From an uncultured Candidatus Saccharibacteria bacterium (GTDB lineage Bacteria > Patescibacteriota > Minisyncoccia > UBA6257 > 2-01-FULL-56-20): DNA of 64,000 bases. Shown here in pieces: positions 8,566 through 51,512 of the stretch (position 1 is its first letter; the number at the start of each line of letters is the position of its first letter). A model generated the notes under the pieces. It saw only the letters and a program-made list of their open reading frames with translations, was not told where the DNA came from and did not search any database. The position numbers and the translations under genes are program-made. The stretch lies in assembly GCA_964409535.1 (NCBI GenBank), contig CAYPDQ010000001.1, positions 22,993 to 86,992 on the forward strand. The letters run 5' to 3'.

Positions 8566-9786
8566 GTGAAAGTACTTATCCAAGCAAAAAAAGCGATAAA
8601 CGAAGGAGGGTTGCCGCTCCTATTTGAAAAAATATGGCGGAAACTTCGAACGAGCTACCTGTACTACTTCGCTCCCGCTCACCAGATGCCGAAGGGCTTA
8701 CCTTCGGTACGCGTGGAATTCACAATAACGACGCCCGCCAAGGACGACGTTTTGATAGCAAAGAGAATACTGGCAGCTTTCCAGAAGGCATCTAAAGATG
8801 AGGGCGAACACGCAAATCTCCATAAGTCCGACAAGGATTCATGGGATAATATCGGGAACCAATACCATGCGGATTTCTACCGGATTCTATTTGCAAACGA
8901 TGCGTATCAGGTTGCTGATCGTCTGCGCAATATGCATTCGGACAAGTTGACGTTCGGAATATCGGGTGGTTCAACCGAGTACAATGATCTAATATCCAGC
9001 GCGAGGCTTAGAAGCGAAAAGGGGGTTATTGTAAAAGACATTCTTGTCTCTTTTGCCGAAACGTTAGGAATCTTGCCATACGAAACCAACGTACCGTATA
9101 TGGCAAAAAAGAACATTTATGCCGATTCCGACTGGCTCGTTGACGAAATCGAAAAGAAGATCGGTATCTCTATCATCCCGCCGGAAATCGACGGCGGGTT
9201 GTTCAAGCTCAGGCTAAAGAAAGGATTGTTTGATATGCGAGACCTTTGGTCTTTATATGCAGCCTGGCGTATCAGTCGGATTATCAAAACAAAATCCCGA
9301 GTATGCGAAATCGGTGCAGGCTTGGGCAAATCCGCTTTGTATGCAGACAGGTTCGGCTTTCGGGACTACGCCATTTTTGACCTGCCCATCATCAACGCCG
9401 TCCAAGCTTGGTATCTAATCAAGGCCCTGCCCAAAAGAGCCATTGTGCTCTATGGCGAAAAGCGCGACGAAAAAGATTCTATTAAAATAATGCCTTACTG
9501 GAAATTTATGGAAGGGACCGATTTCTACGAATTGGTGCTGAATGAAGATTCATTCCCCGAAATCGACCGAGAAGTAGTGGACAAGTACTTACAGAAAATG
9601 AAAGAGCGTGCAAGATACTTCTTGAGCATCAACCAGGAATTCGGAGCTCCTGCTTTTGCGGGTGCCAGTCAGAACCACCAAATTGTTCCACACAGGGTTG
9701 AAACTTCGGGTGGATATAAAAGAATCCACCGCTTTCCCTTCTGGCTAAGGAAGGGCTACGTAGAGGAACTGTATGAGATACCATAG
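8566..9786 (+). CDS. Class I SAM-dependent methyltransferase-like protein (putative sugar O-methyltransferase), paralog B
   Basis: 406 aa with an EIGAGLGK motif and the same C-terminal ...RFPFWLRKGYVEELYE ending as paralog A. Confidence 0.5.
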   Translation: MKVLIQAKKAINEGGLPLLFEKIWRKLRTSYLYYFAPAHQMPKGLPSVRVEFTITTPAKDDVLIAKRILAAFQKASKDEGEHANLHKSDKDSWDNIGNQYHADFYRILFANDAYQVADRLRNMHSDKLTFGISGGSTEYNDLISSARLRSEKGVIVKDILVSFAETLGILPYETNVPYMAKKNIYADSDWLVDEIEKKIGISIIPPEIDGGLFKLRLKKGLFDMRDLWSLYAAWRISRIIKTKSRVCEIGAGLGKSALYADRFGFRDYAIFDLPIINAVQAWYLIKALPKRAIVLYGEKRDEKDSIKIMPYWKFMEGTDFYELVLNEDSFPEIDREVVDKYLQKMKERARYFLSINQEFGAPAFAGASQNHQIVPHRVETSGGYKRIHRFPFWLRKGYVEELYEIP

Positions 9787-21822: not shown

Positions 21823-23355
21823 ATGGCGAAAAGCGTAGTGCTTATAATCCTGGACGGCTGGGGTATAGGCCCGGAAAACGACGCCAATCCGATGCACGTG
21901 GTGAAACCGGAAATCTTCAAGTTTCTGGAGGAAAACTATCCGGTGACGAGCCTGCAGGCCTCGGGCATATCGGTGGGTCTCCCCTGGGGCGAGGTCGGAA
22001 ACAGCGAGGTCGGGCATCTCACTTTGGGCGCGGGCAAAGTCATCTACCAGTACTATCCCAAAATCACAATGGCCGTCCAAGACGGCACGTTTTTTGAGAA
22101 TCCCGCGTTAAAGAATGCCTTCACACATGCGAAACAAACCGGCAGCAGCGTGAATTTGGTGGGGCTTTTGACCAAAGCAAACACTCACGCGTCGCTCGAC
22201 CATCTTCAAGCGCTCCTAAAAATGGCGGAAAAAGAGGGTTTAGATCGGGTGAATCTCCATCTTTTCGCCGACGGCCTGGACAGCCCGCCCAAGTCCCTGC
22301 CGCAATTCCTTAAGCAAATCCCCCTGGACAAACTCGCGACCTTAACCGGCCGCTACTACGCAATGGATCGGAACGAGTCCTGGCAACTGGTAGGGAAGGC
22401 CTACGAGATAATGACCTCCCCCGGCGAGCCGACCGGAGAACTCGGCGCGCTTTTGGACACTTTTTATAAAAGGGGTATGTCCGAGGAGTTCCTACCGCCT
22501 TTACGGCTCCTCCCCGGCCGCGAGATAAAAGACGGCGATGCCCTAATCTTCTTCAACTTCCGAGAGGACGGAATCCGGGAGTTAAGCGCCGCCTTCCTCC
22601 AGCCCGATTTCCAAAACTTCCCCCGGAAACAATTCCAAAACCTGTACCTCGCTACCCTTACCCGCTACAGCGAAAGCTTCCAAAATCCCGTTGCTTTCCC
22701 GGCGGACAAGGTGGAGCGCCCCTTGGGCCGGGTCCTCTCCGAGGCGGGGAAGAGCCAGCTTCGCCTTGCGGAGACCTACAAGTACGCCCACGTGACCTCC
22801 TTCTTCAACGGCTATCGGGAAGAAGCGTTCAAGAACGAGTACCGGGCGCTCGTGCCTTCGCTCCAGATAACCCACCCGGACGAGAGGCCGGAGCTTATGG
22901 CCGCGGCAGTGACCGACCGCTTGGTCCAGGCGGTCCAAGGCGGCGGCTTTGACTTTATCCTCGTAAACTATTCCAACCCGGACACCATCGCCCACACCGG
23001 CAACTACGATGCCTGCCTCCAAGCGGTGCGGGTTATGGATCGGGAGATCGGACGGGTTTTGAAGGCAGTTGAAAGTACGGACACGACGCTCGTCCTCACC
23101 TCCGACCACGGTAACCTGGAGGAGGTTCTAAGTCCGTTGACCGGCATCATTGAGACCCAGCACGACCCCAACCCCGTCCCGCTCCATCTCGTGGGCGCGG
23201 AGTTCAAAGGCAAAAAGTTCGTCAACTGGCGGGACATTCGGAACGAAACCGTGGGTATTCTCGCGGATGTCGCCCCGACCGTGCTCGCGCTTATGGGCAT
23301 TCCGCAGCCGCCGGAGATGACCGGGAAAAACCTGCTCAAAGAACTAGTGTTATAA
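21823..23355 (+). CDS. gpmI: 2,3-bisphosphoglycerate-independent phosphoglycerate mutase
   Basis: 510 aa. N-terminal LIILDGWG and the iPGM metal-binding domain. Confidence 0.9.
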   Translation: MAKSVVLIILDGWGIGPENDANPMHVVKPEIFKFLEENYPVTSLQASGISVGLPWGEVGNSEVGHLTLGAGKVIYQYYPKITMAVQDGTFFENPALKNAFTHAKQTGSSVNLVGLLTKANTHASLDHLQALLKMAEKEGLDRVNLHLFADGLDSPPKSLPQFLKQIPLDKLATLTGRYYAMDRNESWQLVGKAYEIMTSPGEPTGELGALLDTFYKRGMSEEFLPPLRLLPGREIKDGDALIFFNFREDGIRELSAAFLQPDFQNFPRKQFQNLYLATLTRYSESFQNPVAFPADKVERPLGRVLSEAGKSQLRLAETYKYAHVTSFFNGYREEAFKNEYRALVPSLQITHPDERPELMAAAVTDRLVQAVQGGGFDFILVNYSNPDTIAHTGNYDACLQAVRVMDREIGRVLKAVESTDTTLVLTSDHGNLEEVLSPLTGIIETQHDPNPVPLHLVGAEFKGKKFVNWRDIRNETVGILADVAPTVLALMGIPQPPEMTGKNLLKELVL

Positions 23356-23793
23356 GGGCGCTCGGCCTCGCGGCTCGTCGGGGTCGGCGTTGTTTTGCTC
23401 CCCGCCCGAAACGCTGCGCGTATCGCTGCGGGCGGGCAGCGGCAAAACCCACCTGTGTCCCTGCCTGCCGGCAGGCAGGTCGGCCAGCCGACCGAGCACA
23501 TAAGGAACTTATGTACTCGGACCAAGCTCAGCTTGGCCTGCGACACACCCCGCCGAGCCGCCAGGCCTCGCCGTACGGGAGCGCAGCCCCGCTTCCCGAG
23601 GTAACCTGAAGCGGAGGCGGCGTCAAAATGAAGGAGGGAGGCGAAGATTTTACGGTAAGGAAATTTGATGGTCCGATGGTTGCGAGGGGAACTGTCAAAT
23701 TTCCCCGTAAAATCGAGCCGAGCGACTGTCATTTTCGCCGCCGGAGCGGGTTCTGAGGGAAGCGGGGCGGAGCGGCTGTGGTAGAATAGAGCT

Positions 23794-24150
23794 ATGAGGT
23801 TTTTGGCCAAAATAATCCTCGCGGTCGTCGTGAACGGCGTGGCGCTTATGGCGGCGGCGTACTTCCTGCCCGGTTTTGAGCTAAAGAACGACCTTGTCGC
23901 CGTCGCCTGGATCGCACTGGCGCTCACTGCCTTGAACTACACCGTGAAGCCGGTCCTCAAGCTCTTCCTGGGGCCGATAATAGTGCTCACCCTTGGCCTG
24001 GGGCTTGTTATCGTAAACGCGGTCATTCTTTATCTCCTTGACATTTTCTCGCCAGATCTTACCATTCAAGGCGCTTTGACCCTCATTTACGCCTCGGTTT
24101 TGATCGGCGTCGTGAACTTCATCTTCCACCTGGCGACCAAGAAAAGTTAG
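23794..24150 (+). CDS. Phage_holin_4_2 / DUF360-family membrane protein
   Basis: 118 aa, 4 TM, colinear with the PF04020 consensus (VNAVAL...PG...LTLGL). Confidence 0.6.
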   Translation: MRFLAKIILAVVVNGVALMAAAYFLPGFELKNDLVAVAWIALALTALNYTVKPVLKLFLGPIIVLTLGLGLVIVNAVILYLLDIFSPDLTIQGALTLIYASVLIGVVNFIFHLATKKS

Positions 24151-26088: not shown

Positions 26089-27174
26089 ATGGATCCGTTT
26101 CTAAAAAACATCCTGGAATTCAACCGCCAGCTTACGACGGCCGGGCTCCAGCTCTCCAACCTCAAGCGGCTGAAAAAAGGCGGCTATGACTCCGTTCTCA
26201 TAGTCGGAATGGGCGGCTCTGGCCTCGCCGGCGAACTTCTGAAAGATGTGCAGGAGGAATTGGGACTCAAGGTTCCGGTTTTCACCTGGAAAGATTACGG
26301 CCTGCCCGAACCGGAAACGTTCGGTGCAAAGAAACCGCTCTACCTCTTCGTCTCTTTCTCCGGCAACACCGAAGAAACACTCTCCGGCTTCAAATCTGCT
26401 CTAAAACCTAAAACCTATAACCTAAAACCTCATTCCATTGCGGCCGTTGCCCACGGCGGCGAACTCGCCCGCCTCGCGAAGCGCGCGGGAGCACCACTGG
26501 TTCTCTTTCCGGCCGCAGATCCCGTTAGAAGTCCGACATTCGGCCCCGCGAATGTCGGCAGAAACCGGGGGTTTCTTACTTCTAACGGGACAGACTTGAA
26601 TCCCAGGCAATATACTGGTAGGATGTTCTACGCACTGATCCAAGTACTCCGGGCCGCCCGCCTTATTTCTTCCGAGCCGCAGACCTACATCCGGCTCCAA
26701 CCCGCGTCTTTCAAAAAGGAGGGTGCATATCTCGCCAAACGCCTTAAGGGCAGGGTCGTGCTCCTCTACACCGACCGGCGAAGCCATGGCCTGGGCTATG
26801 TCTGGAAAGCTAAATTAAACGAAACCGCAAAGCAGCTCGCTTTCCTGAACGCCGTGCCTGAGATGAACCACAACGAGCTCACCGGCCTTGTTTTCCCAAA
26901 AACCAAGCTGGCCGCGCTATTCATAAGCGATACGTCCGCCCCTGCGGCCGGGGCAGGGCGGACGCGGAAAAGAATCCGGATCAATCTCAAACTTTTAAAG
27001 AAGAAAGGGGTGCAAGCAGAGGAAGTTCCGCTCCAGGGCAAGAGCCGGATGGAGAAGATGTGGAATTCCATAATGCTCGCGGACTGGACCGCATACGAAC
27101 TTGCCAAGATGAACGGCGCGGACCCGGCGGAGATCAAAATAGTTGAAGAGTTGAAAAGTTCGATGAAAAAATAA
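26089..27174 (+). CDS. Bifunctional phosphoglucose/phosphomannose isomerase (SIS domains)
   Basis: Start chosen at the internal ATG (MDPFLKNIL). SIS motifs GMGGSGLAGE and SFSGNTEET. Contains a heptamer-repeat insert (LKPKTYNLKP). Confidence 0.7.
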   Translation: MDPFLKNILEFNRQLTTAGLQLSNLKRLKKGGYDSVLIVGMGGSGLAGELLKDVQEELGLKVPVFTWKDYGLPEPETFGAKKPLYLFVSFSGNTEETLSGFKSALKPKTYNLKPHSIAAVAHGGELARLAKRAGAPLVLFPAADPVRSPTFGPANVGRNRGFLTSNGTDLNPRQYTGRMFYALIQVLRAARLISSEPQTYIRLQPASFKKEGAYLAKRLKGRVVLLYTDRRSHGLGYVWKAKLNETAKQLAFLNAVPEMNHNELTGLVFPKTKLAALFISDTSAPAAGAGRTRKRIRINLKLLKKKGVQAEEVPLQGKSRMEKMWNSIMLADWTAYELAKMNGADPAEIKIVEELKSSMKK

Positions 27175-27278: not shown

Positions 27279-29030
27279 ATGATCAAAAAAACAATTAAAA
27301 CCAAAACGGTCTCTCCGCACGGGCGTCTGCACGTCAAGACGGCAAAGATAGCCGAAGACAAAGAGCCGCCGGTGCGCTGGGCGGCTTTGGGCGGCTTGGA
27401 GGAGATCGGCCGGAATATGATGTTCTTGGAGTACAAGAACGAGATCATCATAATTGACGTCGGCTTGCAATTCCCGGAGGAAGAAACACCCGGGGTGGAC
27501 TACATCATCCCCAACGTCTCTTATCTGGAGGCGAGGCGCGATAAGATCCGCGGCATCGTCATCACCCACGGCCACTACGACCACATCGGCGCCCTGCCCT
27601 ACGTTCTGGGGAAACTGGGCAACCCCCCGATATACGCCACCCAGCTCACCAAAGAAATAATCCTGAAGCGGCAGGAGGACTTCCCGAACATGCCCAAGCC
27701 GGTTTTCATCGTGGTCAAAGCCGGCGAGACCCACCAGCTTTCGGAACACTTCATCTTGGAGTTCTTCGCGGTGGAACACAACATTCCGGAGGGCGTAGGC
27801 ATGGTCGTAAGCACTCCGGCTGGCAAAGTTGTCCATCCCGGCGAGTTCAAATTTGACTACGACCGCGACGGCAAACCACGCAATATGGACGTCTGGGAAA
27901 ACGTCGGCAAGCAGGGCATCCACACCCTGTTCCTGGATTCCACCGGCGCGGAAGTCCCGGGTTGGTCCCTTTCCGAACGGGTGGTGGAAGAGGAGCTGGA
28001 GAAACTCTTCCGGGCGGCCAAGGGCAGGATAATCGTCGCGACTTTCGCCTCCCTCCTCGGCCGCATCGCGGAGATCGTGAAGATCGCCGAGCGTCTCGGC
28101 CGGCACATTGCTCTCTCCGGCTATTCCTTGAAAACCAACATGGATATCGCCTTGAGCTTGGGCTACGTCAAGGTAGAACAGGGTACCATAGTCCGGCTGG
28201 AAGACATCCACAAGTACCGGGATGACAAGCTCTTGATCCTCTCCACCGGCGCCCAGGGCGAACCGCGGGCAAGCCTGGTCCGGATCGCAAGCGGCGAGCA
28301 CAAACAGGTTACCTTAAAGAAAACGGATACCGTCATCCTTTCCTCGTCCATCGTCCCGGGGAACGAAGCCAGCGTCCAGATATTAAAGGACAATATCGCC
28401 CGCCAGTGCCCGAACGTTTTCCACTATAAGATGCTGGACATCCATTCGAGCGGCCACGCGCCGATAGAGGAATTAAAGACCGTGATGAAACTGGTGAAAC
28501 CGCATTTTTTCCTTCCGATCCACGGCTATTACTTTATGCGCATGCGGAACGCCCGCCACGCCCAGGAGGTCTTGGGACTGCCGCCGGAGAGAACCATCGT
28601 TGCCGACAACGGCCTAGTAGTAGAAATGCGCAAGGACAGGGTGGTGCTCACCGAAGAACAGGTGCCCGCCTCCTACGTGATGGTGGACGGCTTGGGTGTG
28701 GGCGACGTGGAAGAAGTCGTGCTGCGGGACCGCCGGAGCCTAGCCCAAGAGGGAATGGTCGTCGCCATCGTGACCATAGACCGCAACCGCGGCGGGCGTC
28801 TCCTAAAGAATCCGGACATCATCTCCCGCGGCTTCATCCTCCTCAAAGAGAACCAGGAAATTCTGGAAGGCATCCGCAAGCGCATCCGGGGCATCATTTC
28901 CCGCTTGCCCGCCCACCAGACAGTGGAACCGGACTATCTGAAGGCGCTCATCCGCGACCAGATCGGCCAGTTCCTTTATAACAAGACGAAACGCAGGCCG
29001 ATGATATTGCCCGTGGTTATAGAGATATAG
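27279..29030 (+). CDS. rnj: Ribonuclease J (metallo-beta-lactamase / beta-CASP)
   Basis: HGHYDHIG motif, beta-CASP and RMMBL regions. Start moved to ATG 27279 (MIKKTIKTK) so it does not overlap the tRNA. Confidence 0.85.
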   Translation: MIKKTIKTKTVSPHGRLHVKTAKIAEDKEPPVRWAALGGLEEIGRNMMFLEYKNEIIIIDVGLQFPEEETPGVDYIIPNVSYLEARRDKIRGIVITHGHYDHIGALPYVLGKLGNPPIYATQLTKEIILKRQEDFPNMPKPVFIVVKAGETHQLSEHFILEFFAVEHNIPEGVGMVVSTPAGKVVHPGEFKFDYDRDGKPRNMDVWENVGKQGIHTLFLDSTGAEVPGWSLSERVVEEELEKLFRAAKGRIIVATFASLLGRIAEIVKIAERLGRHIALSGYSLKTNMDIALSLGYVKVEQGTIVRLEDIHKYRDDKLLILSTGAQGEPRASLVRIASGEHKQVTLKKTDTVILSSSIVPGNEASVQILKDNIARQCPNVFHYKMLDIHSSGHAPIEELKTVMKLVKPHFFLPIHGYYFMRMRNARHAQEVLGLPPERTIVADNGLVVEMRKDRVVLTEEQVPASYVMVDGLGVGDVEEVVLRDRRSLAQEGMVVAIVTIDRNRGGRLLKNPDIISRGFILLKENQEILEGIRKRIRGIISRLPAHQTVEPDYLKALIRDQIGQFLYNKTKRRPMILPVVIEI

Positions 29031-32000
29031 CCAGCTTTACGCTTTTGCCGTTTATTCTTATCTCTTCCATGCCTGTCCCGACCTGCCCCGACTGAAACGT
29101 CGGGGCCGCAGCGTCGGGACTTTCGCCTTCGGAAACGCTCCGAAGGTAGGTTTTTTTACGGTCAAACAATTCCAGCGCTTTCTTAACGTCGGTGTCGTCG
29201 GTCTTATAGGTAAGCGCCGCCATTTCTCCCACCTTGAGTCCCTGCTTCTTGCGCAGTTCCTGAACTGCCCGTTCCAAAGCGCGCACCATACCTTCCAGGC
29301 GCAGCTCATCGGAAATCGAGGTGTCCAGATAGAAATTCAGAACCCGAGAGACCCCCGCCATCACTTCTATATTCTCCCCTTTCTCGCTCGAGAGGGTCGG
29401 GTCGAATTTCTTCACGTTCAACTCGCCCAAAAGTACCTGCATCAACTCCGCGCTGGGGGTCATATCTTCCTTGGTGAAGAACGCGAGGCGCGGCAGGGGC
29501 TGGCGCACCGGAACGTTCAGGGTTTTCCTCACCGCCTGGCCCAAGGACGCCGCTTCCCGGACGGTTGCCATATCCCGCAGGAGATCTTTCTCCTCCGGCG
29601 CAAGCTCTCTCGCTTCCGGCCAGTCCGAAAGATGCACCGATTCATCAGGTTTTAGGTTATAGGTTTTAGGTTTTAGATCCTGGTAGATAAGTTCGGAGAT
29701 ATACGGCATAACCGGTGCGATAACTTTGGAGGCGTTCAAAAGCGAGTGCCGCAGAACCGCGAAAAACTCCGTGTCCGTCCGGCCGCGGCTGCGGCGCAAG
29801 TACCAAGTGGAGAGATCGTCAACGTATTCGGAGATAATGCGCGTCGCGCGGACGGTATCGTATCGATCCAGATTTTCAGTCACTCCGTTAACTAACTCCT
29901 GGGTGCGTACGGCTATCCAGCGGTCAAGAATATTCGCGGTCTTCCCGGCCAAGCCGCCCGGCGGCGGCTCGTATCCCGCCTCCGCGGCGTATGTCTGATA
30001 ATAATTGAAGACGTTCCAGAGGATGAGGACCACCTTCCGGTACGTGTTCTGCACCTCTTTCTCGCTGAAGTTCAGATTATCCGCCTGCATCACCACCGAG
30101 TTCGTAAGATAGAAGCGCAACGCATCCACGCCGTATTTATTGATCACCTCCCACGGATCCGGGAAATTGCCTTTGGACTTGCTCATTTTGGAGCCGTCTT
30201 CGGCCAAAATCGTGCCGGTCGTGACCACGTTCTCAAACGGCGCCTTGCCGAAAAGGGCGTAGGAGACGACGTGCATCACGTAGAACCACGCCCGGGTCTG
30301 GGCGATGTATTCCGCCACGAACTGCGCCGGCAGGCGCTTGTCTCCCGACGCTCTCGGTCGGGACCCCGACTCCCGACTCGTCGGGACGTCGGGGAAAAAC
30401 TCCTTATTATCAAAAGGATAGTGATACTCCGCAAAGGGCATTGAGCCCGCTTCCACCCAGGAATCAAAGATTTCCTTTACCCGTCGCGCTTCCCCGCCGC
30501 AGGTCGGGCACTTTAAAACCACATCATCAATGTACGGCCGGTGGAGATCATCAATGCCCACGCTTATCTCAAACGGCTCTCCCGTCCTCGGATAGCCCAG
30601 CTCCGAGCCGTAGTACTTCTGGACCAACCACAGCGGGTCGCCATGGCCGACAATTAGAATCCTCTTGTTTTGGTAATTTTTATCCGCTTCCTTTATGAAG
30701 CTGACCATCCGCGCCTGGATCTCGGTCCATGTTTCCCCGCCCTCCGGCGCTTCCGTCCAACGGTCGCGTTTAGAAGCGAACTCTTCGTGATATTCTTTCT
30801 CACTCCTACCCTCAAAAGTGCCGGTGTTGTACTCCCGCAAGCGCTTGTCGGTCTTTGCCTCCACCCCAAGCACCTTGCCGACGATCTCGGCCGTACGCCT
30901 GGTTCTCAAAAAGTCGGAGGTGAATATTAGGTCCACGCCGCCCTTGGCCTTTATTTTCTCGGCAATTCCCTCCGCCTCTTTCACTCCTTTCTCCGTCAGA
31001 TCATATTTATCATTTTCTGTCCGTCCATTCACGACCTCCCGGACGTTCTTCTCCGCCTCTCCGTGGCGGGTGAAATAGAAAGTATTGGTGCTCAAGCCCA
31101 GTTCCTTAATGCTCCCCACCACAACCGGCGGGCAATTTTTATCACCTGCCTGCGCAGGCAGGCATTTCCAGACCGGAATCGGATTTCCCCAATAGCGGTT
31201 GCGGGAAATGTTCCAGTCCGGCGCGGATTCCACGCTTTTCTCATAGCGGCCGTGCTTCAAATGCTCCGGGAACCAGTTTATCTCCCTGGAGTTGGAGTCA
31301 ATCAGTTCTTTTTTCATCTTCTGGATGTTGATGAACCATGCCGGAATCGCATTGTAGTAGAGAGGATTGCCGCATCTCCAGCAGTGCGGATAGGAGTGGG
31401 TCACTTTTTCTTTGCGTAGAAGCAAGCCACGCTTCTCCAGGTCGGCGATTATGATTGAATCGGCATCTTTGAAATACTTGCCGCGCAGGAATTCCGGCGC
31501 CTTGTCGTTGAACTTGCCTCTGTCGTCCAGCATCGGCACGACCGGGAGCCCAACTTTCTGACCCAACTCGTAGTCCTCTTCGCCATAGACGACCGCAGTG
31601 TGCACGATGCCTGTGCCTTCCTCGGTGGAAACGAAGTCAGCTGCGTACACCTTAAAAGCGGCCTGCCCTTCGGAGCCTTGGCGAAGAATGGGGATGTCAA
31701 AAAGCGGTTCATACTCCAAACCGACGAGTTCCGAGCCCTTGAATTCTTCCACTATGTCATTGCGAGGCGCCGTAGGCACCGCGGCAATCCCTTGAGATTG
31801 TTTCCCGCCACTGCCCTGCATCGCGGTCGCAACGACGGCACTAACCCTATCTTTCGCTAAAATGTAAAACTCCTCCTCAACTCTAACTTTCACGTAATCA
31901 ATCTTTTCTCCCACCGCTAACGCAACGTTTCCAGGCAAGGTCCATGGTGTCGTAGTCCAAGCCAGAAGATAGGTGTTTGGTGTTAGGTTATAGGTTTTAG

Positions 32001-32643
32001 AATCACTTTTAACATTTGAGCTTTTAACCTTGAACTTCACAAAGACGGCGTCTTCCACGACGTCTTTGTATGAATTGTCCATCGCCACTTCAAAGTTGGA
32101 AACCGGCGTCTCGCATCTCGGGCAGTACATCAAAACCTTCCGGCCCTCGTACACCAGCCCTTTGTCGTAAATTTGCTTGAACGCCCACCAGACCGACTCC
32201 ATATAGTCCCTGTCCATCGTCTTGTAGGAGTTCTCAAAGTCAATCCAGCGCGCGATTCGCCGGACCATCTTCCCCCATTCGTCTGCGAACATAAGCACCT
32301 TCTCCCGGCAGGTGCGGTTGAATTTCTCTATCCCGATCTCTTCTATCTGCTTCTTGCCGGAGATGCCCAGTTCCCGCTCCACAACTTCTTCTATCGGCAG
32401 GCCGTGGCAGTCCCAGCCCCAGCGGCGACGGACGAAACGGCCCTTCATCGTCTGGTAGCGGGGAAAGAGGTCTTTGACGGTGGATGCCAAAATATGCCCG
32501 TAGTGCGGGAGGCCGGTAGCAAAAGGCGGCCCGTCGTAAAAAGTGTAGGGCTTGCCGCCTTTAGTCTTCTCTAATGACTTTTGGAAAACCCGGTTCTTTT
32601 CCCAGAAGTCCAGTATCTTTTCTTCCAGCTCTTTCGGATTCAT
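29017..32643 (-). CDS. ileS: Isoleucyl-tRNA synthetase (type 2, eukaryote-like) with an inserted histidine-phosphatase (PGAM-like) domain
   Basis: 1208 aa. HYGH/KMSKS class I motifs, editing domain and zinc-finger CPTCGG. An insert of about 170 aa with an RHGE His-phosphatase signature lies between ...VVVGSIKELG and GIDDLHRPY. Confidence 0.9.
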   Translation of the reverse strand: MNPKELEEKILDFWEKNRVFQKSLEKTKGGKPYTFYDGPPFATGLPHYGHILASTVKDLFPRYQTMKGRFVRRRWGWDCHGLPIEEVVERELGISGKKQIEEIGIEKFNRTCREKVLMFADEWGKMVRRIARWIDFENSYKTMDRDYMESVWWAFKQIYDKGLVYEGRKVLMYCPRCETPVSNFEVAMDNSYKDVVEDAVFVKFKVKSSNVKSDSKTYNLTPNTYLLAWTTTPWTLPGNVALAVGEKIDYVKVRVEEEFYILAKDRVSAVVATAMQGSGGKQSQGIAAVPTAPRNDIVEEFKGSELVGLEYEPLFDIPILRQGSEGQAAFKVYAADFVSTEEGTGIVHTAVVYGEEDYELGQKVGLPVVPMLDDRGKFNDKAPEFLRGKYFKDADSIIIADLEKRGLLLRKEKVTHSYPHCWRCGNPLYYNAIPAWFINIQKMKKELIDSNSREINWFPEHLKHGRYEKSVESAPDWNISRNRYWGNPIPVWKCLPAQAGDKNCPPVVVGSIKELGLSTNTFYFTRHGEAEKNVREVVNGRTENDKYDLTEKGVKEAEGIAEKIKAKGGVDLIFTSDFLRTRRTAEIVGKVLGVEAKTDKRLREYNTGTFEGRSEKEYHEEFASKRDRWTEAPEGGETWTEIQARMVSFIKEADKNYQNKRILIVGHGDPLWLVQKYYGSELGYPRTGEPFEISVGIDDLHRPYIDDVVLKCPTCGGEARRVKEIFDSWVEAGSMPFAEYHYPFDNKEFFPDVPTSRESGSRPRASGDKRLPAQFVAEYIAQTRAWFYVMHVVSYALFGKAPFENVVTTGTILAEDGSKMSKSKGNFPDPWEVINKYGVDALRFYLTNSVVMQADNLNFSEKEVQNTYRKVVLILWNVFNYYQTYAAEAGYEPPPGGLAGKTANILDRWIAVRTQELVNGVTENLDRYDTVRATRIISEYVDDLSTWYLRRSRGRTDTEFFAVLRHSLLNASKVIAPVMPYISELIYQDLKPKTYNLKPDESVHLSDWPEARELAPEEKDLLRDMATVREAASLGQAVRKTLNVPVRQPLPRLAFFTKEDMTPSAELMQVLLGELNVKKFDPTLSSEKGENIEVMAGVSRVLNFYLDTSISDELRLEGMVRALERAVQELRKKQGLKVGEMAALTYKTDDTDVKKALELFDRKKTYLRSVSEGESPDAAAPTFQSGQVGTGMEEIRINGKSVKLAISL

Positions 32644-32900
32644 CCCGTTAGAGACAGGAAACGCCTTAAGCGGTTCTCGAGGTAGCGTTTGCCTGGGCCA
32701 CTCTTTAGGTACTTTTCTCGCGACCTTGCGTCATCTTCATTGAGACACGCCTCGTAGTATACGAGGTTCCAGGGGGCACGGCTCTTAGTCCAGGTTGATT
32801 TGCCTTCGTTATGCTGCTTAAGACGTTTCCGTAAGTCGTTCGTGCTACCGGTGTACCAATAGCTGCTTTTCTTGCTTTGGATAACATAGGTGTAGTACAT
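32640..32900 (-). CDS. GIY-YIG nuclease-family protein (about 86 aa), bounded by terminal inverted repeats
   Basis: MYYTYVIQSKKSSYWYTGSTNDLRKRLKQHN is a canonical GIY-YIG motif. The frame is open up to GTG 32930. 14-bp inverted repeats ATCCCGTTAGAGAC lie at 32641-32655 and 32907-32921. Confidence 0.7.
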   Translation of the reverse strand: MYYTYVIQSKKSSYWYTGSTNDLRKRLKQHNEGKSTWTKSRAPWNLVYYEACLNEDDARSREKYLKSGPGKRYLENRLRRFLSLTG

Positions 32901-32921
32901 AAGCTTGCGGTCTCTAACGGG
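32641..32921. mobile_element. Small TIR-bounded element carrying the GIY-YIG ORF (putative founder of a MITE-like family)
   Basis: The left end TCATCCCGTTAGAGACAGGAAAC and the right end AAGCTTGCGGTCTCTAACGGGAT are inverted copies. The same ends recur without the ORF at 46780-46899, 51438-51512 and, degenerate, at 50906-50936. Confidence 0.55.
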
Positions 32922-32943
32922 ATTAAGCACGAATCTAAAAATA

Positions 32944-34707
32944 TCAGATTTTTTCCGGTGCGGAAATACCGAGGAGGCCGAGGCCGGTTTTCATAACACC
33001 GGCGGCTACGGCGACGAGCGCAAGCCGCGCCTCCCGCCTTTCCTTGTCTTCATCTTTGAGTATCGGCGTGGATTCATAGTAGGAATTAATCGCGTTCGCG
33101 AGTTCGTAGAGATAAACGGCGACGGCATTCGGGGCGCACGCCGCAGCCGCGGATTTCACTGCCTCCGGGAACTCCGCCATTTTCCTGATTAGCGCGAGTT
33201 CATTCTCTTCAATAAGGCGCGCTGCGTTCCACGTTCCACGTTCCACGCCCCGTGATTTGCGCAAGATACTGCGCAAACGTGCATAGGTGTATTGGAGATA
33301 CGGCCCGCTGTCACCCTGGAAAGAGATTGATTTGTCCATGTCAAAAACAATGTCCCGGCCGACGCCCTGTTTCAAGATGGAGTAACGGATGGCGGCCAGG
33401 GCCACTTTTTCTTCTATCTCTTCGCGTTCTCTTTTGGTAAGCTCCTTGCGTTCGGCTACTTTTTTAGCCACCGCTTCTTTCAGCTGGTCAATCAGCGCCT
33501 CCGCGGTGATAACCTCGCCGGTGCGGGAGGACATTTTACCCGAAGGTAAGCGCATCATGCCGTGGCTAAGATGGACTGTTTTCTCCGCCGCTTCCGGCAC
33601 TACCTGCTCCATCGCTTTCAAAACCACTCTGAAGTATTCATTGATTTCGTTTCCGGTCACGATAAACGATGCGTCCGGGTGATACAGGTCAAATTTTTTC
33701 TGGTTCAGTCCCAGCTCCTTGGCCTCATACGTCGGCAAGCCCTGGGAGTTTATAAACACTCTGTTGTGCAGGCCGTACTTCTCGCCGGGAAAGATAATCG
33801 CGCCTTCACTTTTTTGAAACACCTCCGGATGGGCCTTAACGAGCTTCACACCCACCGGTCCAACTTCGCTTTCAAAGAAATAATGGACGAACTTCGTGCC
33901 CAGCCGCCTATAAATCGTCTCAAAATAGTCTAAGCTCCACTTGCGGCCGAGATCGTATAATCTGTTTATTTCTTTGTCTGAACGGTTGTATACCTTGACG
34001 TTTATATCCTCCACTTGCTTCCTTAGCTCATCCTTATCTGGACCACCCCTCAAAGAACCGCTGATATCTTTCATATCGTAAGCGCCAGAGCCAACAGTAT
34101 ATGCATTAGCGAGATATCTTATTTTCTTATCTAGAGCGTCTCCTTTTCTGGGCAAGCTGCCTTGCAAAATATAGAGAATACCCCAAATGGTTTTAGCCAC
34201 ATGCAAACCAACGTCGCCCTGGTAATTCACGCGCAAGACCTTGGCCCCGGCGGCCTCGTGGAGGCGGGCGATGGCTTCGCCGATGACATTGGTCATGAGA
34301 TGCCCAATGTGAAACTGCTTGAACGGGTTGGGGTCGGTGTACTCCACCATCACTTTCTTGCCTTTGAGCAAATCCAGACGGCCATAATCGCGGCTTGCGG
34401 CAATCTGCGCGAACTCCTCTTGGATGGCTTTCTCCGACAGCCAAAAGTTTATGAATCCCGGCGGGGCGACCTGAACATTTTGAATAAATCTCTGCGGGGC
34501 GACTTTCCGGACTCTCTCCGCGATTTCTTCAGCCACCGCCATCGGGCTGCGGCCCTTTTCCTTGGCCAAACGCAAGGCGAGGTTCGTGGAGTAGTGGCCA
34601 AATTCAGATTTAGCAGCCAGAGACAAGTCAAAATCGGCATGTTTGCCTGCCTGCGCAGGCAGGCCTGCCGCCTTCTTCAAGAGTTGAGCAAGCTTTCGCC
34701 GTATCAC
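32944..34707 (-). CDS. argS: Arginyl-tRNA synthetase
   Basis: 587 aa with the HIGH-region (FHIGHLM), Add-1 N-domain and DALR anticodon-binding domain. Confidence 0.9.
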   Translation of the reverse strand: MIRRKLAQLLKKAAGLPAQAGKHADFDLSLAAKSEFGHYSTNLALRLAKEKGRSPMAVAEEIAERVRKVAPQRFIQNVQVAPPGFINFWLSEKAIQEEFAQIAASRDYGRLDLLKGKKVMVEYTDPNPFKQFHIGHLMTNVIGEAIARLHEAAGAKVLRVNYQGDVGLHVAKTIWGILYILQGSLPRKGDALDKKIRYLANAYTVGSGAYDMKDISGSLRGGPDKDELRKQVEDINVKVYNRSDKEINRLYDLGRKWSLDYFETIYRRLGTKFVHYFFESEVGPVGVKLVKAHPEVFQKSEGAIIFPGEKYGLHNRVFINSQGLPTYEAKELGLNQKKFDLYHPDASFIVTGNEINEYFRVVLKAMEQVVPEAAEKTVHLSHGMMRLPSGKMSSRTGEVITAEALIDQLKEAVAKKVAERKELTKREREEIEEKVALAAIRYSILKQGVGRDIVFDMDKSISFQGDSGPYLQYTYARLRSILRKSRGVERGTWNAARLIEENELALIRKMAEFPEAVKSAAAACAPNAVAVYLYELANAINSYYESTPILKDEDKERREARLALVAVAAGVMKTGLGLLGISAPEKI

Positions 34708-46454: not shown

Positions 46455-46782
46455 AGAAGATCAAGATTGGAAGAACGAGTATCCAGACAAGATACGCTGC
46501 GGCGAAGATCGCCGCCCAAAAAAGATACACGCCTACACCGATGATTATCCGCACGGAGCGGAAAATTACGCCCAAGACCCGGCCGATCACGGAGTAGTCC
46601 TTGTACAGGGGTTGGAAGAAGTGTTTCAGAGTTATTTTCACTGCAAATGTCCGGTCCAGATATTCCAAAAGAGCGGTGAACGCATAAGCAAATCGCCGGG
46701 AAGCGTCCACGTACCAATGGTGAAAGAAGTCGGTCAGCCGGAAGAAAAACCGCCCGACAAGATATACCAGGGCAAAGTCCAT
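46435..46782 (-). CDS. Hypothetical membrane protein (2-3 TM)
   Basis: Start taken at ATG 46780-46782 (MDFALVY...), which lies inside the left TIR of a MITE copy. Confidence 0.35.
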   Translation of the reverse strand: MDFALVYLVGRFFFRLTDFFHHWYVDASRRFAYAFTALLEYLDRTFAVKITLKHFFQPLYKDYSVIGRVLGVIFRSVRIIIGVGVYLFWAAIFAAAYLVWILVLPILIFYAFRSF

Positions 46783-46899
46783 CCCGTTAGAGGCAGGAAA
46801 CTTTCGTTTCCGAAGGTTTTGCAAGCCGGTGCGACCACGGCTGTTTCTCCGCCCTGTGCACTATTACCCCACACACAAGCTTGCGGTCTCTAACGGGAT
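46780..46899. mobile_element. MITE-like, ORF-less derivative of the GIY-YIG TIR element
   Basis: CATCCCGTTAGAGGCAGGAAAC ... AAGCTTGCGGTCTCTAACGGGAT. Both ends are nearly identical to the ends at 32641 and 32921, with about 75 bp of unrelated interior. Confidence 0.55.
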
Positions 46900-48370: not shown

Positions 48371-48409
48371 TGAGGCCAATTCGTGGGCGGCTCGCAGAGC
48401 CGCCCATTG
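48371..48409 (+). terminator. Terminator-like hairpin (10-bp perfect stem TGGGCGGCTC/GAGCCGCCCA, loop GCAG, then TTGATTTTG)
   Basis: Perfect inverted repeat followed by a T-rich tract, in the AT-rich noncoding region left of the recombinase. Confidence 0.3.
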
Positions 48410-48675: not shown

Positions 48676-50206
48676 ATGGAAAATATTTCACCGCAAAAAT
48701 TCTTTTTGTACGCCCGCAAGTCCACCGATGTTGAGGACAAACAAGTTTTGTCCATTGAGGCCCAACTAACAGAATTGCGCGCCTTTGCAAAAACAGAAGG
48801 GCTAAATGTCTTTGAGGAATTTGTGGAGAAGCAAAGCGCGAAAATTCCCGGCCGCCCCATTTTCAATTCCATGCTCAACCGGATTGAGAGAGGTGAAGCT
48901 AACGGCATAGTTTGTTGGAACCCCGACAGATTGGCGCGCAATTCTGTTGACGGTGGACGAATAATTTATCTTTTGGACTGCGGGCGTATTGTTGCGCTCA
49001 AGTTTCCAACGTTCTGGTACGAAAATACCGCGCAAGGAAAATTTATGCTCAATATCGCTTTTGGGTAAAGCAAATACTACATTGATTCACTTTCGGAAAA
49101 TGTAAAGCGTGGGTTGCGCCAAAAAGTAAGACGCGGAGAATATCCTGGCCTTGCGGCAGTGGGATATATCAATGACCCACGCACTAAAACTGTTGTGGTA
49201 GATAGAAAAAAATCAGTGGTAATTCGCAAGGCCTTTGAGTTATACGCGCAAAACGGCTCGCGCCTTGAAGATGTTTCAAATTTTTTGGCGCAACAAGGCA
49301 TTACCACGTCAGGCGACAAGAAGCTTCACCGAGACAGAATTTCTTTTATCCTTTCCAACCCTTTTTACTATGGACACTTTCGTTATGCCGGCGAAATTCA
49401 CGAAGGAAAGCACCAGCCAGTCATCTCAAAGAAAATTTTTGATAAAGTCCAAGAAGTTTTACGGCAAAGAGGAAGGTCGATGAAAGCCAAATGGGAGCCG
49501 CAAGCTCTGTGCGGGATTTTGAAATGCGGAACTTGCGGCATGAGCATTACCGGCGAATACAAGGTTAAGAAGCAGAAAAATGGCAATGTTCACGAGTATG
49601 TCTATTATCACTGCTCCAAACGCTCTAAAATTATGAAATGTCCCGAACCTTGTATTCGCCAAGAAGAACTGGACAACCAGCTTTCCTCTTTACTACAAAA
49701 ATTTTCTTTGAGAGCAGATTGGGCGGAACAAATGAACACGATGCTTGAAAAAGACAAAAAGGAATCCGCCCAATTCTGCACCGCTTTTGTTCAAGAAGCG
49801 AGCACCAAAATCCAAAGTATCAAAGTTAAGCTCCAGCGACTTTTAGACGGCTATCTTGAGCAAGTCATCGAGCAAGAAGTTTACAGAACAGAAAAAGCTA
49901 AACTTCTCTCCGAGAAAAAGTCGCTGGAGGAACAAATCACCAATCTTGAACAAAAGCGGACTGGCTGGTTAGAACCTATGGAGAATTGGATAAAAGAGGC
50001 AAGTTCCTTGCCTAAAATCGCACAAGAGAGCAACCTTTTTGCTAAAAAGGTTGCCTACCGAACTTTGTTCGGTTCGAACCTCATTCTGCACAACCGCGAG
50101 GCGCGGCTTGTCGCGCCGAGCAGAGAGGATTTGTCGGGGGAAAACGCTTGGGCGGCACTTCGTGCCGCCCATCAAATCGCTTCAAAAAAGCCTTTCAGTT
50201 TTGTAG
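48676..50206 (+). pseudogene. Large serine recombinase (resolvase catalytic domain, recombinase domain and zinc ribbon) interrupted by an in-frame TAA
   Basis: The N-terminal ORF (48676-49068) has the catalytic Ser motif YARKST and ends ...NIAFG-TAA. The same frame continues SKYYIDSLSENVKRGL... into the recombinase and Zn-ribbon domains (CGTCG...HCSKRSKIMKC). The frame then runs on through the tRNA with no natural stop. Confidence 0.65.
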
Positions 50207-50281
50207 TGGTGCCCCCGGCAGGAATCGAACCTGCATCACCTCCTTCGGAGGGAGATATCCTATCCATTGAACGACGAGGGC
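50207..50281 (-). tRNA. tRNA-Arg (anticodon CCG), CCA encoded
   Basis: The reverse complement is GCCCTCG-TC-GTTC-AATGGATA-GGAT-A-TCTCC-CTCCGAA-GGAGG-TGAT-GCAGG-TTCGATT-CCTGC-CGGGGGC-A-CCA. The T-loop TTCGATT is conserved and the anticodon loop reads CU-CCG-AA. Confidence 0.75.
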
Positions 50282-50298: not shown

Positions 50299-51417
50299 CT
50301 AATTTACTACAAAGTAATAGACTTCGTAAACCGCGCCGAGGATGAAGACGAGTACCAGGAGATTGACCAGAAGCTTTTGGGCCGCGCTGAACGCAAGCGC
50401 ACGCTTACCCACGAGGAGGATCAGGAGGTACTCCAAGCCAAGGAACACGCCCCCGGCAAGACCGAGAACCTTCAAAAAATCGCCGAAGCCCGCGAGCAAG
50501 AGAAGAGGCGGCAAGAGAAACACCACCGCCGCAGCCAAAAGCCGCGAAGAGCCGAGGTCGTGAACCAGAGAGTTTCTTATCTCCAAGCCAATAGGGATGT
50601 AAGAAGTCCAGATAGCGAAAAACCCCAGAACCACGACCGACAGAAATTTCCACGCTGGCCACTCTCCCAGCCCGCTTACCGTGTCCGGCGTGACCGCAGA
50701 GATAGTTCCAAGTACACCCACGACGAAAAGAAGGTACAAGAAAGCAGCCGCGTAAATCCCTGCGGTCATTGCCCTGCGGGAACTCCCGGACGCCTGCCCC
50801 GCGCGTTTGCTGTAATCGAACGCGGGCTCCACCGCCGTCCAGGCGGCAAGCGAGAAAAGAACCGGGCCGAACGGCAGGAAAATCTCTTTCCAATTGATCG
50901 CCGCGAATCCCGTTAGAGAGTTTTTCTCTAATGGAACGAAAACGCCGAAGAAAACCAAGCCGATTATAAGCGCCATCATCACTGCGCCGAGGAATTCGGA
51001 GAACAAAAGCCGCCGCAGGCCCAAGAGAATGGGGAGTGAACCTGCAAGCCAGAAGAGGAACGTTCCCAAAGTTCTCGTGCCGGGACGGAGGAGTTCGGAA
51101 AATTCCCCGGCGAGTATAAGATAAGTGACGAGCGCCAAGGTCAGGCCTCCGATTATGACCACAACTCCGAAAATCCTCCCGCCAGTCCCAAAATATCTCG
51201 CCGTGAGTCCCAGAAGGCGCTTACTCCCGCCATCCGCCTCCAAAACCCGATAGTACAGGGAGTGGGCGAAGGACAAGAAAAATGCGATTACCGTGAGGTA
51301 CAAGACGCCAAGGAGCCAGCCCGACCGGAGAAACACGTAGGGTAAGGAAAAAAGACCTGCGCCAACCGCGGTCGCTGCGACCAGCACCGCTATCCACACG
51401 AAACGTCCTACTTTCAT
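50299..51417 (-). CDS. APC-superfamily-like amino-acid permease (10-11 TM)
   Basis: 372 aa, polytopic. Contains an in-frame copy of the TIR motif (PLEKNSLTGF) at 50906-50936. Confidence 0.45.
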   Translation of the reverse strand: MKVGRFVWIAVLVAATAVGAGLFSLPYVFLRSGWLLGVLYLTVIAFFLSFAHSLYYRVLEADGGSKRLLGLTARYFGTGGRIFGVVVIIGGLTLALVTYLILAGEFSELLRPGTRTLGTFLFWLAGSLPILLGLRRLLFSEFLGAVMMALIIGLVFFGVFVPLEKNSLTGFAAINWKEIFLPFGPVLFSLAAWTAVEPAFDYSKRAGQASGSSRRAMTAGIYAAAFLYLLFVVGVLGTISAVTPDTVSGLGEWPAWKFLSVVVLGFFAIWTSYIPIGLEIRNSLVHDLGSSRLLAAAVVFLLPPLLLLAGFGDFLKVLGLAGGVFLGLEYLLILLVGKRALAFSAAQKLLVNLLVLVFILGAVYEVYYFVVN

Positions 51418-51437: not shown

Positions 51438-51512
51438 ATCCCGTTAGAGGCAGCCCGCCCTAAAGGCCCCTCCGGGGCGCGCTTGCGCGCGGGCTCGGCC
51501 TCTAAACGGGAT
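51438..51512. mobile_element. MITE-like copy of the TIR element (75 bp)
   Basis: ATCCCGTTAGAGGC ... GCCTCTAAACGGGAT flanking a GC-rich palindromic interior. Confidence 0.45.

Follow-up and report, generated by a model that had tools for sequence, protein, structure and literature searches.

F2, a perfect palindrome of 18 to 20 bp with the general form CCTGCCTGC(CG)GCAGGCAGG, also written (CCTG)2-C(CG)G-(CAGG)2, occurs three times in a 64-kb stretch of DNA from an uncultured Candidatus Saccharibacteria bacterium (contig CAYPDQ010000001.1, assembly GCA_964409535.1; hereafter, the window) and looks like an undescribed, extremely small mobile DNA element. It is a discrete, invariant unit that is inserted as a block with no regular target site duplication (TSD), is specific in sequence when set against control palindromes, recurs in many phyla and in phages, and passes a filter of frame and phase within genes. 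F2 is probably a miniature, non-autonomous, copy-and-paste element resembling repetitive extragenic palindromes (REPs), with selection filtering the copies that fall in coding DNA. The initial annotation of the window had already suggested a small mobile palindromic element. Gaps in orthologous proteins, pairs of empty and filled sites and an excess over chance in three collections favour that proposal, but a link to REP-associated tyrosine transposases (RAYTs) found no support and F2 lacks the GTAG or CGTC tag of REPs. Nothing pointed to the restriction-related role that had been offered as an alternative.

A palindrome common to many phyla and to phages

All three palindromes first noticed in the window are present as described (Table 1). 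The spacer copy has the canonical 20-bp form, CCTGCCTG-CCGG-CAGGCAGG (CCTGCCTGCCGGCAGGCAGG), and the copies in ileS and argS are the same 18-mer, CCTGCCTGCGCAGGCAGG, which equals the canonical form minus the central CG. The claim that identical 18-mers in two synthetase genes would not arise by chance is borne out by 100 dinucleotide-preserving shuffles of the window, none of which contained a match, versus three copies observed. The 9-nt half-site gives six strand-hits in the window, all of them within the three palindromes, and no decayed copies were found there. F2 is predicted to fold into an 8-bp GC stem closed by a 4-nt CCGG loop (-8.0 kcal/mol), and an Rfam search at the window copies returned nothing. 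Neither the 20-mer, the 18-mer, a 12-nt substring nor the encoded peptides appeared in the literature searched, where the conceptual matches were confined to work on REPs, Rickettsia palindromic elements (RPEs) and heptamer repeats.

F2 is not, however, the private family of this genome that had been assumed; the 18-mer is a minority variant of a 20-mer widespread in bacteria and phages. One genome per species (596 Gb) was scanned with fixed arms and zero to two central bases, a query that samples variation of the centre only, and F2 was recovered at 120 loci or more. Among the matches listed, the centre is CG at 79 of 127 sites and is missing altogether at 15 (the 18-mer); single central bases C, G, T and A account for 11, 8, 8 and 4 sites (19-mers), CT and CA for one site each, and the other 13 dinucleotides for none. 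Since CG dominates, the perfect 20-mer is taken as canonical; that the remaining 15 dinucleotides hardly ever occupy the centre is a built-in control against chance. Carriers come from at least 12 phyla, and long-read chromosomes as well as a complete, curated WWE3 genome are among them. The matches listed comprise approximately 34 loci in many classes of the candidate phyla radiation (CPR)/Patescibacteria, approximately 30 in Bacteroidota (including six cultured isolates, namely Winogradskyella echinorum KCTC 22026, Flagellimonas yonaguniensis, Robertkochia flava, Longitalea luteola, Flavivirga sp. and Algoriphagus taiwanensis JCM 19755, the carrier of L116), 11 in Gammaproteobacteria, 9 in Deltaproteobacteria-type lineages, 8 each in Planctomycetota and Acidobacteriota, 6 in Omnitrophota, and a few each in Nitrospirota, Ignavibacteriota, Armatimonadota, Chloroflexi, Elusimicrobiota and others. 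The taxonomy of metagenome-assembled genomes (MAGs) may be imperfect, and the breadth is anchored by the isolates and complete genomes.

A viral collection held the 20-mer at 43 sites in 35 stretches, and one genuine phage contig, with terminase and adaptor protein genes, carries at least six copies in 29.5 kb, in which no recognisable transposase was found. The control palindromes, arm-swapped GGCAGGCAGGCCTGCCTGCC, CCAGCCAGCCGGCTGGCTGG and CGTCCGTCCCGGGACGGACG, gave 0, 0 and 0 matches in the same collection. Two of them, arm-swapped GGCAGGCAGGCCTGCCTGCC and CCAGCCAGCCGGCTGGCTGG, fold as well as F2 or better (-8.9 and -8.0 versus -8.0 kcal/mol) yet are absent, which argues that the F2 sequence itself is special and not just its hairpin potential. 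Hairpin stability was thus rejected as the cause of its abundance. The identity of F2 across at least 12 phyla and phages changes the question.

Block insertions and their sites

The best named homologues place the source organism among bacteria of the Patescibacteria/Parcubacteria type. Pfam domains agree with the gene assignments ileS and argS, and both 18-mers, read on the minus strand in the same phase, encode LPAQAG (C-LPAQAG-D in IleS, G-LPAQAG-K in ArgS). This peptide is missing from the closest orthologues, the outcome predicted for a check that the initial annotation had proposed. In ArgS, the insert forms residues 16-21 of the N-terminal domain, and all 39 closest orthologues (up to 65% identity) show an exact six-column gap (KVAG------RAA versus KAAG-LPAQAG-KHA in the window). 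In IleS, it separates the two Cys of a CxxC knuckle (WKC-LPAQAG-DKNC), and the closest orthologues (70-77% identity) lack it, reading WKC-EK-GCPP versus WKC-LPAQAG-DKN-CPP. Both sites are loops whose length varies among orthologues, and LPAQAG is most likely a neutral passenger in either protein. Comparison with the seven closest IleS orthologues exposed three more window-specific insertions, all made of GC-rich hairpin DNA of other families; every lineage-specific insertion of this IleS traces to GC-rich hairpin DNA.

A member of the Liptonbacteria syntenic with the window (locus L122; sampled loci carry L numbers) has neither the ArgS copy nor the copy in the iPGM-side spacer. It carries another F2, with two mismatches, in a spacer of its own, and the IleS position is the one site that it has in common with the window. 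At the exact IleS codon occupied in the window it has CCTGtCTGCCGAGGCAGG, that is, the 20-mer with a different 2-nt deletion and a substitution. The differences between L122 and the window point to independent events within the lineage.

Several further observations concern this ileS gene. One of its three other insertions is GGGATTGCCGCGGTGCCTACGGCGCCTCGCAATGAC (peptide GIAAVPTAPRND), and GTCCCGAC/GTCGGGAC hairpins make up the remaining two. In loci of other phyla (L030, L076, L047 and L034), F2 is flanked by similar hairpins of the ATTGCGAG...GCAAT and CCCGAC kinds, which suggests several hairpin families crossing phyla. A His_Phos_1 domain is inserted in the catalytic core, between the zinc-knuckle halves; it is common to more than 100 Patescibacteria IleS proteins and is a lineage trait. 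A link between this domain and F2 was rejected, since those proteins are without F2. The peptide GGRQGG, which another IleS (P0126) has in the loop that holds F2 in the window, was ruled out as a decayed F2 by its DNA. A heptamer-based repeat, AGGTTTTAGGTTATAGGTTTTAGGTTTTAGA, occurs twice in ileS, where it reads KTYNLKP and KTYNLTP and was not flagged as window-specific in the orthologue alignment.

Outside the window, F2 boundaries are likewise sharp and the flanks differ from site to site. Partial duplicates of tRNA genes provide empty and filled counterparts. At L057, a partial tRNA-Lys duplicate reads GGTAGA[20-mer]GCAGCGGC, versus GGTAGAGCAGCGGC in the intact tRNA 280 nt away. At L116, a duplicated tRNA segment contains a clean 19-nt F2 insertion as well as a second, related hairpin, CCTACCTGAGGTAGG, on the opposite side of the T-loop. 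No target duplication accompanies either pair. Across the sampled sites, 162 of 166 have no abutting repeat of 5 nt or longer (the four exceptions measure 7, 7, 8 and 14 nt), so that there is no regular TSD, and 256 flanks yielded no target consensus or conserved tetranucleotide other than a depletion of A at position +1 on the 3' side (9%), equivalent to a depletion of T immediately 5'.

The surroundings of F2 are rich in repeats. Flanking inverted repeats of 7 nt or longer occur at 11% of F2 sites versus 3% of random positions, and direct repeats of the same length at 16% versus 5%; F2 is often embedded in short tandem repeats. After in silico removal of F2, 9.1% of junctions versus 2.7% of controls coincide with the tip of a hairpin whose stem measures at least 6 bp (3.4-fold; p=4e-4). 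Obligatory targeting of hairpin loops was rejected, with more than 80% of sites lying outside any predicted loop. F2 is also nested in F2, at the same loop position (CCG^G; CCTGCCTGCCG^GCAGGCAGG), in a deltaproteobacterium and a Bacteroidetes genome, and an extra half-site lies within 50 nt at 20 of 171 sites, versus approximately 6 expected. In tRNA genes or their fragments, F2 occupies the D-loop (L026, L057 and L155), the T-loop junction (L116) or the variable loop (L148 and L125). On the viral contig of L148 (2239-2330), the variable loop of a phage tRNA-Met holds the 20-mer, and ARAGORN reads the gene as a 92-nt tRNA with a long variable arm.

Other hairpins and tRNA arrangements were seen in passing. 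The related viral contig of L125 (approximately 8570-8660) has the same tRNA without the 5' half of its T-arm, the loss adjoining the palindrome. At L026 (4016-4225), an intact tRNA-Met stands between a tRNA-like 5' half, whose D-loop holds F2, and the 3' half that matches it (acceptor stems GTCAGGG/CCCTGAC); the two halves may represent a tRNA gene that was disrupted or permuted. Two window hairpins share the arms TGGGCGGC/GCCGCCCA (10-bp stems) and differ in their loops, and one of them lies just upstream of tRNA-Arg (Table 1). GGGCGGCAC-type arms flank F2 in a phage contig (L144 and L151).

The internal structure of F2 invites the thought that it arises de novo and convergently, by (CCTG)n slippage followed by fold-back template switching to (CCTG)2CCGG(CAGG)2, with no transfer at all. 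The arms are CCTG dimers in tandem, the palindromes are as perfect as correction of a quasi-palindrome would make them, the centre is the variable part, and the 5' flank of the argS copy (GGCAGG) is already arm-like. However, the number of repeats per arm is fixed at two and the flanks do not continue CCTG or CAGG; the structurally equivalent control (CCAG)2CCGG(CTGG)2 and the arm-swapped control are absent from the viral collection. Furthermore, the empty sites in IleS, L057 and L116 offer no half-site from which to fold back, and the half-site CCTGCCTGCC alone is not over-represented in the window. We therefore regard convergent formation as very unlikely.

Selection could also have spread F2 as a functional site that, like parS, NBS or matS, is bound by a conserved dimeric protein, whose specificity would keep the sequence identical across phyla, or as an uptake or segregation signal. 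The parS site is a precedent for a palindrome conserved across phyla. The dyad of F2 is perfect through its centre, CG is strongly preferred over the other 15 centres among the matches listed although an RNA hairpin would not require it, the three window copies are clustered within 11 kb, and F2 lies within or next to parB in three loci and next to ssb in three loci. Such sites, however, form in place through point mutations, whereas F2 comes in as a block and resides in dead tRNA fragments, in itself and in other repeats. Its positions bear no relation to promoters or gene starts, the genes beside it are unrelated housekeeping genes, and it is present in phyla that use canonical parS. The centre-deleted 18- and 19-mers, in which half-site spacing is altered, are common. 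A binding-site origin thus appears rather unlikely.

Copies in genes

ORF (open reading frame) length proved an unreliable proxy for coding in high-GC viral contigs and was replaced by Pfam evidence. In IleS, ArgS, TopA, FtsW, the ComF-like protein, TruB, FtsK and the GDP-mannose dehydratase, Pfam domains lie on both sides of the insert or span it. Besides window IleS and ArgS, the 18-mer encodes LPAQAG in the zinc ribbon of TopA (L090), in FtsW/RodA (L017) and in a ComF-like protein (L018), and PACAGR in TruB (L004). The 20-mer encodes LPAGRQx in the FtsK motor domain (L023), a GDP-mannose dehydratase (L036) and a PMT-type glycosyltransferase (L110), and PACRQAG in an HsdS-like gene (L092), which also holds a decayed 21-nt copy. 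The FtsK gene has gained seven codons (21 nt) at a loop with respect to orthologues of 79% identity, which means that the 20-mer was accommodated with one extra base; the insert of the dehydratase consists of 20 + 9 + 1 nt.

In real genes, only frame-preserving forms (18, 21 or 30 nt) persist. The Leu-Pro-Ala phase is used by 8 of the 10 verified genic copies (binomial p of approximately 0.01 for any one phase by our own calculation), and the other phases encode Cys/Arg-rich peptides. These data fit selection acting on insertions, with frame-preserving versions, tolerant loops and the mildest phase persisting.

A gammaproteobacterial MAG (OZ251218.1) offers a separate case at L028 (5926-7011): an IS630-type transposase gene, with helix-turn-helix (HTH) and DDE_3 domains, carries F2 twice as a 19-mer, each time in the phase that reads TCLLQAG. 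One copy separates the HTH from the DDE domain and the other is close to the C terminus; both are internal, not at the ends. The same chromosome has at least two more 19-mers (L041 and L056).

A further reading is that F2 is a coincidence or a sequencing or assembly artefact. Short GC-rich palindromes can stem from some library or assembly errors, and no positive sign of such an origin was seen. Chance is contradicted by the shuffles, and F2 is flanked by unrelated stretches of native sequence, namely tRNAs and ORFs whose frames are intact. Moreover, a separate assembly, of run SRR5161795, yielded ArgS with its insert; F2 is present in cultured isolates, in long-read chromosomes and in a curated complete genome, the work of many laboratories; and decayed as well as frame-adjusted copies exist. 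Chance and artefact are effectively refuted.

Neighbouring genes and the search for a partner enzyme

An element of 18 to 20 bp may be moved by an enzyme supplied in trans, and the initial annotation had proposed a test for association with RAYTs. No RAYT, Y1 transposase or other recurrent enzyme was found near approximately 155 sampled copies. All-versus-all clustering of 3137 ORFs within 2.5 kb of F2 at 120 loci revealed no recurrent transposase, RAYT or recombinase. A Pfam scan of the 117 nearest neighbours returned 173 families, none in more than two loci; these are unrelated housekeeping genes, with no transposase, RAYT or recombinase among them. SSB, ParB and Rrf2 each recur three to four times near F2. 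Linkage to a RAYT or other transposase was accordingly rejected for the DNA within 2.5 kb of the F2 loci, and no autonomous insertion sequence (IS) sharing F2 ends was seen in approximately 1.3 Mb of flanking DNA.

The sole recurrent small family is a GIY-YIG nuclease of approximately 90 aa (PF01541; four of four tested ORFs match), found within 500 bp of F2 at 6 of 120 genome loci and 1 of 35 viral loci (7 of approximately 155). F2 might accordingly be a by-product or hitch-hiker of small GIY-YIG homing-endonuclease cassettes, either as a co-converted flank or through capture at nuclease breaks, e.g., in tRNA genes. Counting the genome loci and the window, six of eight GIY-YIG genes lie within 500 bp of F2, versus approximately one expected if placed at random (estimated p~1e-4). 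The ORF starts 23, 27 and 41 nt downstream of F2 in L057, L155 and L092; L057 and L155 have a common layout, i.e., a truncated tRNA-Lys 5' half with F2 in its D-loop followed by GIY-YIG, and F2-type hairpins flank the gene in L116 and L016. The reciprocal test came out negative, with a single F2, 1.4 kb away, in the 294 kb that make up 80 metagenomic loci carrying relatives of the window GIY-YIG. Approximately 95% of F2 copies have no GIY-YIG within 2.5 kb, and the window cassette, between argS and ileS, has no adjacent F2. We therefore treat the link as unproven, F2 as a component of cassettes of the window type having failed that test, and consider a by-product origin quite unlikely. The proximity may characterise a tRNA-associated subfamily, or dispensable DNA may simply be where both elements collect. 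No rival explanation accounts as well as a mobile element for block insertion together with sequence specificity.

The window GIY-YIG gene has features of its own. It is bounded by 13-bp terminal inverted repeats (TIRs), ATCCCGTTAGAGA ... TCTCTAACGGGAT, and its TGA stop overlaps the ATG of ileS (ATGA); its 80 metagenomic relatives have the same TIRs and the same placement at an ATGA stop/start junction. Elsewhere in the window, a 119-bp derivative with both TIRs, the 5' leader and no ORF resembles a MITE (miniature inverted-repeat transposable element), and further TIR-like sites occur (Table 1). The gene looks like a mobile cassette that targets operon junctions; L122 has a NUDIX gene in its place. 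In a Bdellovibrionales MAG (L016, 3078-3250), the GIY-YIG gene by F2 is split by an insertion of approximately 170 bp with inverted ends (GGGGACTGTTTTC...GAAAACAGTCCC), and has a half palindrome with three CAGG units upstream and a full F2 downstream.

The spacer that holds the canonical F2 is a series of hairpins, namely CCCGCCCG...CGGGCGGG, GGTCGGCCAGCCGACC and CCGAGCACATAAG...CTTATGTACTCGG, followed by a long nested stem (e.g., GGAAATTTGA/TCAAATTTCC and ATTTTACGG/CCGTAAAAT). It has no Rfam match and may be a structured RNA or the product of repeats inserted one upon another.

Table 1. F2 copies and other features of the window
Feature	Position	Strand	Remarks
F2, canonical 20-bp form	23460..23479		Intergenic; CCGG centre
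F2, 18-bp form	31145..31162		Inside ileS
F2, 18-bp form	34646..34663		Inside argS; one more flanking G/C pair extends it to 34645..34664
ileS	29017..32643	-	1208 aa, intact frame; tRNA-synt_1, Anticodon_1
argS	32944..34707	-	587 aa, intact frame; Arg_tRNA_synt_N, tRNA-synt_1d, DALR_1
iPGM	21823-23355	+	Stop at 23355; upstream side of F2 spacer
Holin-like ORF	23794-24150	+	Downstream side of F2 spacer
Spacer with hairpin series	23356-23793		Contains the 20-bp F2
Long nested stem	~23570-23790		Within the spacer
Other window-specific ileS insertions	31759-31797, 30343-30393, 29077-29121		GC-rich hairpin DNA
His_Phos_1 domain	30616-31075		IleS residues 523-676
Heptamer-based repeat	29647-29691, 31971-32001, 54735-54779		First two in ileS
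GIY-YIG gene	32642-32923	-	86 aa, PF01541; between argS and ileS
MITE-like derivative	46781-46899		119 bp
TIR-like sites	50907-50919, 51438-51450, 26519-26531
Hairpins with common arms	48384-48406, 50149-50171		Second one upstream of tRNA-Arg
tRNA-Arg	50207-50281

A probable REP-like element and comparable known systems

If F2 is mobile, new copies would enter as a discrete block, with no TSD and almost no sequence preference, and with a moderate preference for exposed loops of foldable DNA, such as hairpin tips, loops of tRNA genes or the loop of another F2. A single-stranded hairpin intermediate would be handled by an enzyme supplied in trans, a mode of movement that we infer from the missing TSD and the partial loop preference by analogy with IS200/IS605 and REP/RAYT. 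Most copies would then persist in non-coding DNA, and those in genes would survive as frame-preserving versions at surface loops that tolerate indels, chiefly in the phase Leu-Pro-Ala-(Gln-Ala-Gly / Gly-Arg-Gln). Such selection would explain why both synthetase genes carry the 18-mer and the spacer the 20-mer. Horizontal spread, plausibly by way of phages, would account for the identity of F2 across phyla. A bolder possibility, which we put forward tentatively and think more doubtful than not, is that F2 is the smallest horizontally spreading mobile DNA yet seen, a 20-bp hairpin in at least 12 phyla and phages that a widespread enzyme acting on single-stranded DNA (ssDNA) hairpins moves in trans into exposed loops, including those of tRNA and essential genes, continually seeding housekeeping proteins with the short insertions LPAQAG and LPAGRQx.

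Several points weigh against reading F2 as a mobile element. Movement is read from sequence comparison rather than from real-time insertion or population polymorphism, and no mobilising enzyme was found near the sampled copies. The identity of the 20-mer across phyla is unusual for elements of the REP or MITE type, which are normally lineage specific, and calls for either strong constraint or horizontal transfer at high frequency. In the distant L122 the same IleS codon is occupied, yet at least nine IleS proteins closer to the window are without the insert, so that this site either was hit twice, as a hotspot, or has repeatedly lost an old insertion. With approximately 10% of sites at strong hairpin tips, targeting of loops amounts to a preference at best. 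The source genome has a modest copy number, with three copies in 64 kb, all inside 11 kb, and no more in a further 10 kb on one side of the source contig (74 kb covered in total), and the genome scan sets a lower bound of 120 loci on total abundance.

A mobile F2 would set a new lower size limit for a propagating genetic element and would pose a puzzle, in that 20 bp cannot encode two distinct ends and yet identical copies are precisely made in unrelated phyla. Its partner enzyme, if found, could bring to light a new way of inserting DNA that is specific to hairpins and may be of interest to biotechnology, and the cultured Bacteroidota carriers make F2 experimentally tractable. F2 is also a concrete source of the short insertions that set CPR/Patescibacteria proteins apart from their orthologues. 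In annotations, F2 can be recognised by the peptides LPAQAG and LPAGRQ and by tRNA genes that show a spurious "long variable arm" or a split D-loop.

Among known systems, the HIP1, DUS and USS motifs accumulate in situ through mutation and biased retention, as single hyper-abundant motifs, whereas the F2 half-site occurs in the window only inside palindromes and its copies are block insertions. MITEs and the IS200/IS605-derived palindrome-associated transposable elements (PATEs) are, like F2, non-autonomous and hairpin-forming, and IS200/IS605-type elements insert through ssDNA with no TSD; F2, too, has no regular TSD. F2 differs from MITEs and PATEs in having no internal sequence, fixed TSD, target tetranucleotide or related autonomous element in the flanking DNA, and at 20 bp it is too short for two distinct ends. 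There is no tnpA or tnpB near the F2 loci, and the resemblance to IS200/IS605 would be one of mode of action only. TAACTGA heptamer repeats of Beggiatoaceae, Cyanobacteria and Bacteroidetes have been inferred to spread horizontally, though by no evident mechanism (MacGregor 2015, PMC4679880). They share with F2 a specific short sequence and a patchy distribution across phyla, and F2 is often embedded in comparable tandem repeats; however, they are tandem direct repeats upstream of start codons, whereas F2 copies are palindromic block insertions.

The Neurospora "PstI palindromes" by tRNA genes and the GC clusters of yeast mitochondria are conserved GC-rich palindromes of approximately 18 to 40 bp dispersed in AT-richer DNA, where they are found beside or inside tRNA and protein genes. 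Their presence is optional from strain to strain, and they are considered mobile. We know of no enzyme for them and of no sharing across kingdoms. They differ from F2 in being organellar and lineage restricted and in having other sequences. RPEs, described from Rickettsia, include the longer palindromic insertions of RPE-1 (approximately 100 to 150 bp). Like F2, RPEs are palindromic repeats found in frame in essential protein genes, where they are translated at tolerated positions; F2 measures 18 to 21 bp and is found in many phyla. RPE-4 and RPE-6 have been discussed (PMC3733652).

REP elements are the nearest class; such systems have an associated RAYT gene of the Y1 type, as a rule with REPs on either side. 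Their super-families are defined by an unpaired GTAG or CGTC tag and a short tail, and intragenic REPs are documented (Di Nocera et al. 2013, PMC3733652). F2 has neither such a tag nor a 3-bp tail and is fully symmetric including its loop; it is identical in at least 12 phyla and viral contigs, whereas REP families are family- or species-specific; and it has no RAYT within 2.5 kb of the sampled loci, and dimers or clusters are rare. The CGTC super-family, too, is without a known transposase (PMC3733652). Both REPs and F2 are short, dispersed, GC-rich stem-loops (20 to 40 bp for REPs and 18 to 20 bp, at the lower size limit, for F2), mostly extragenic, that occasionally insert in frame into housekeeping genes as apparently neutral passengers.

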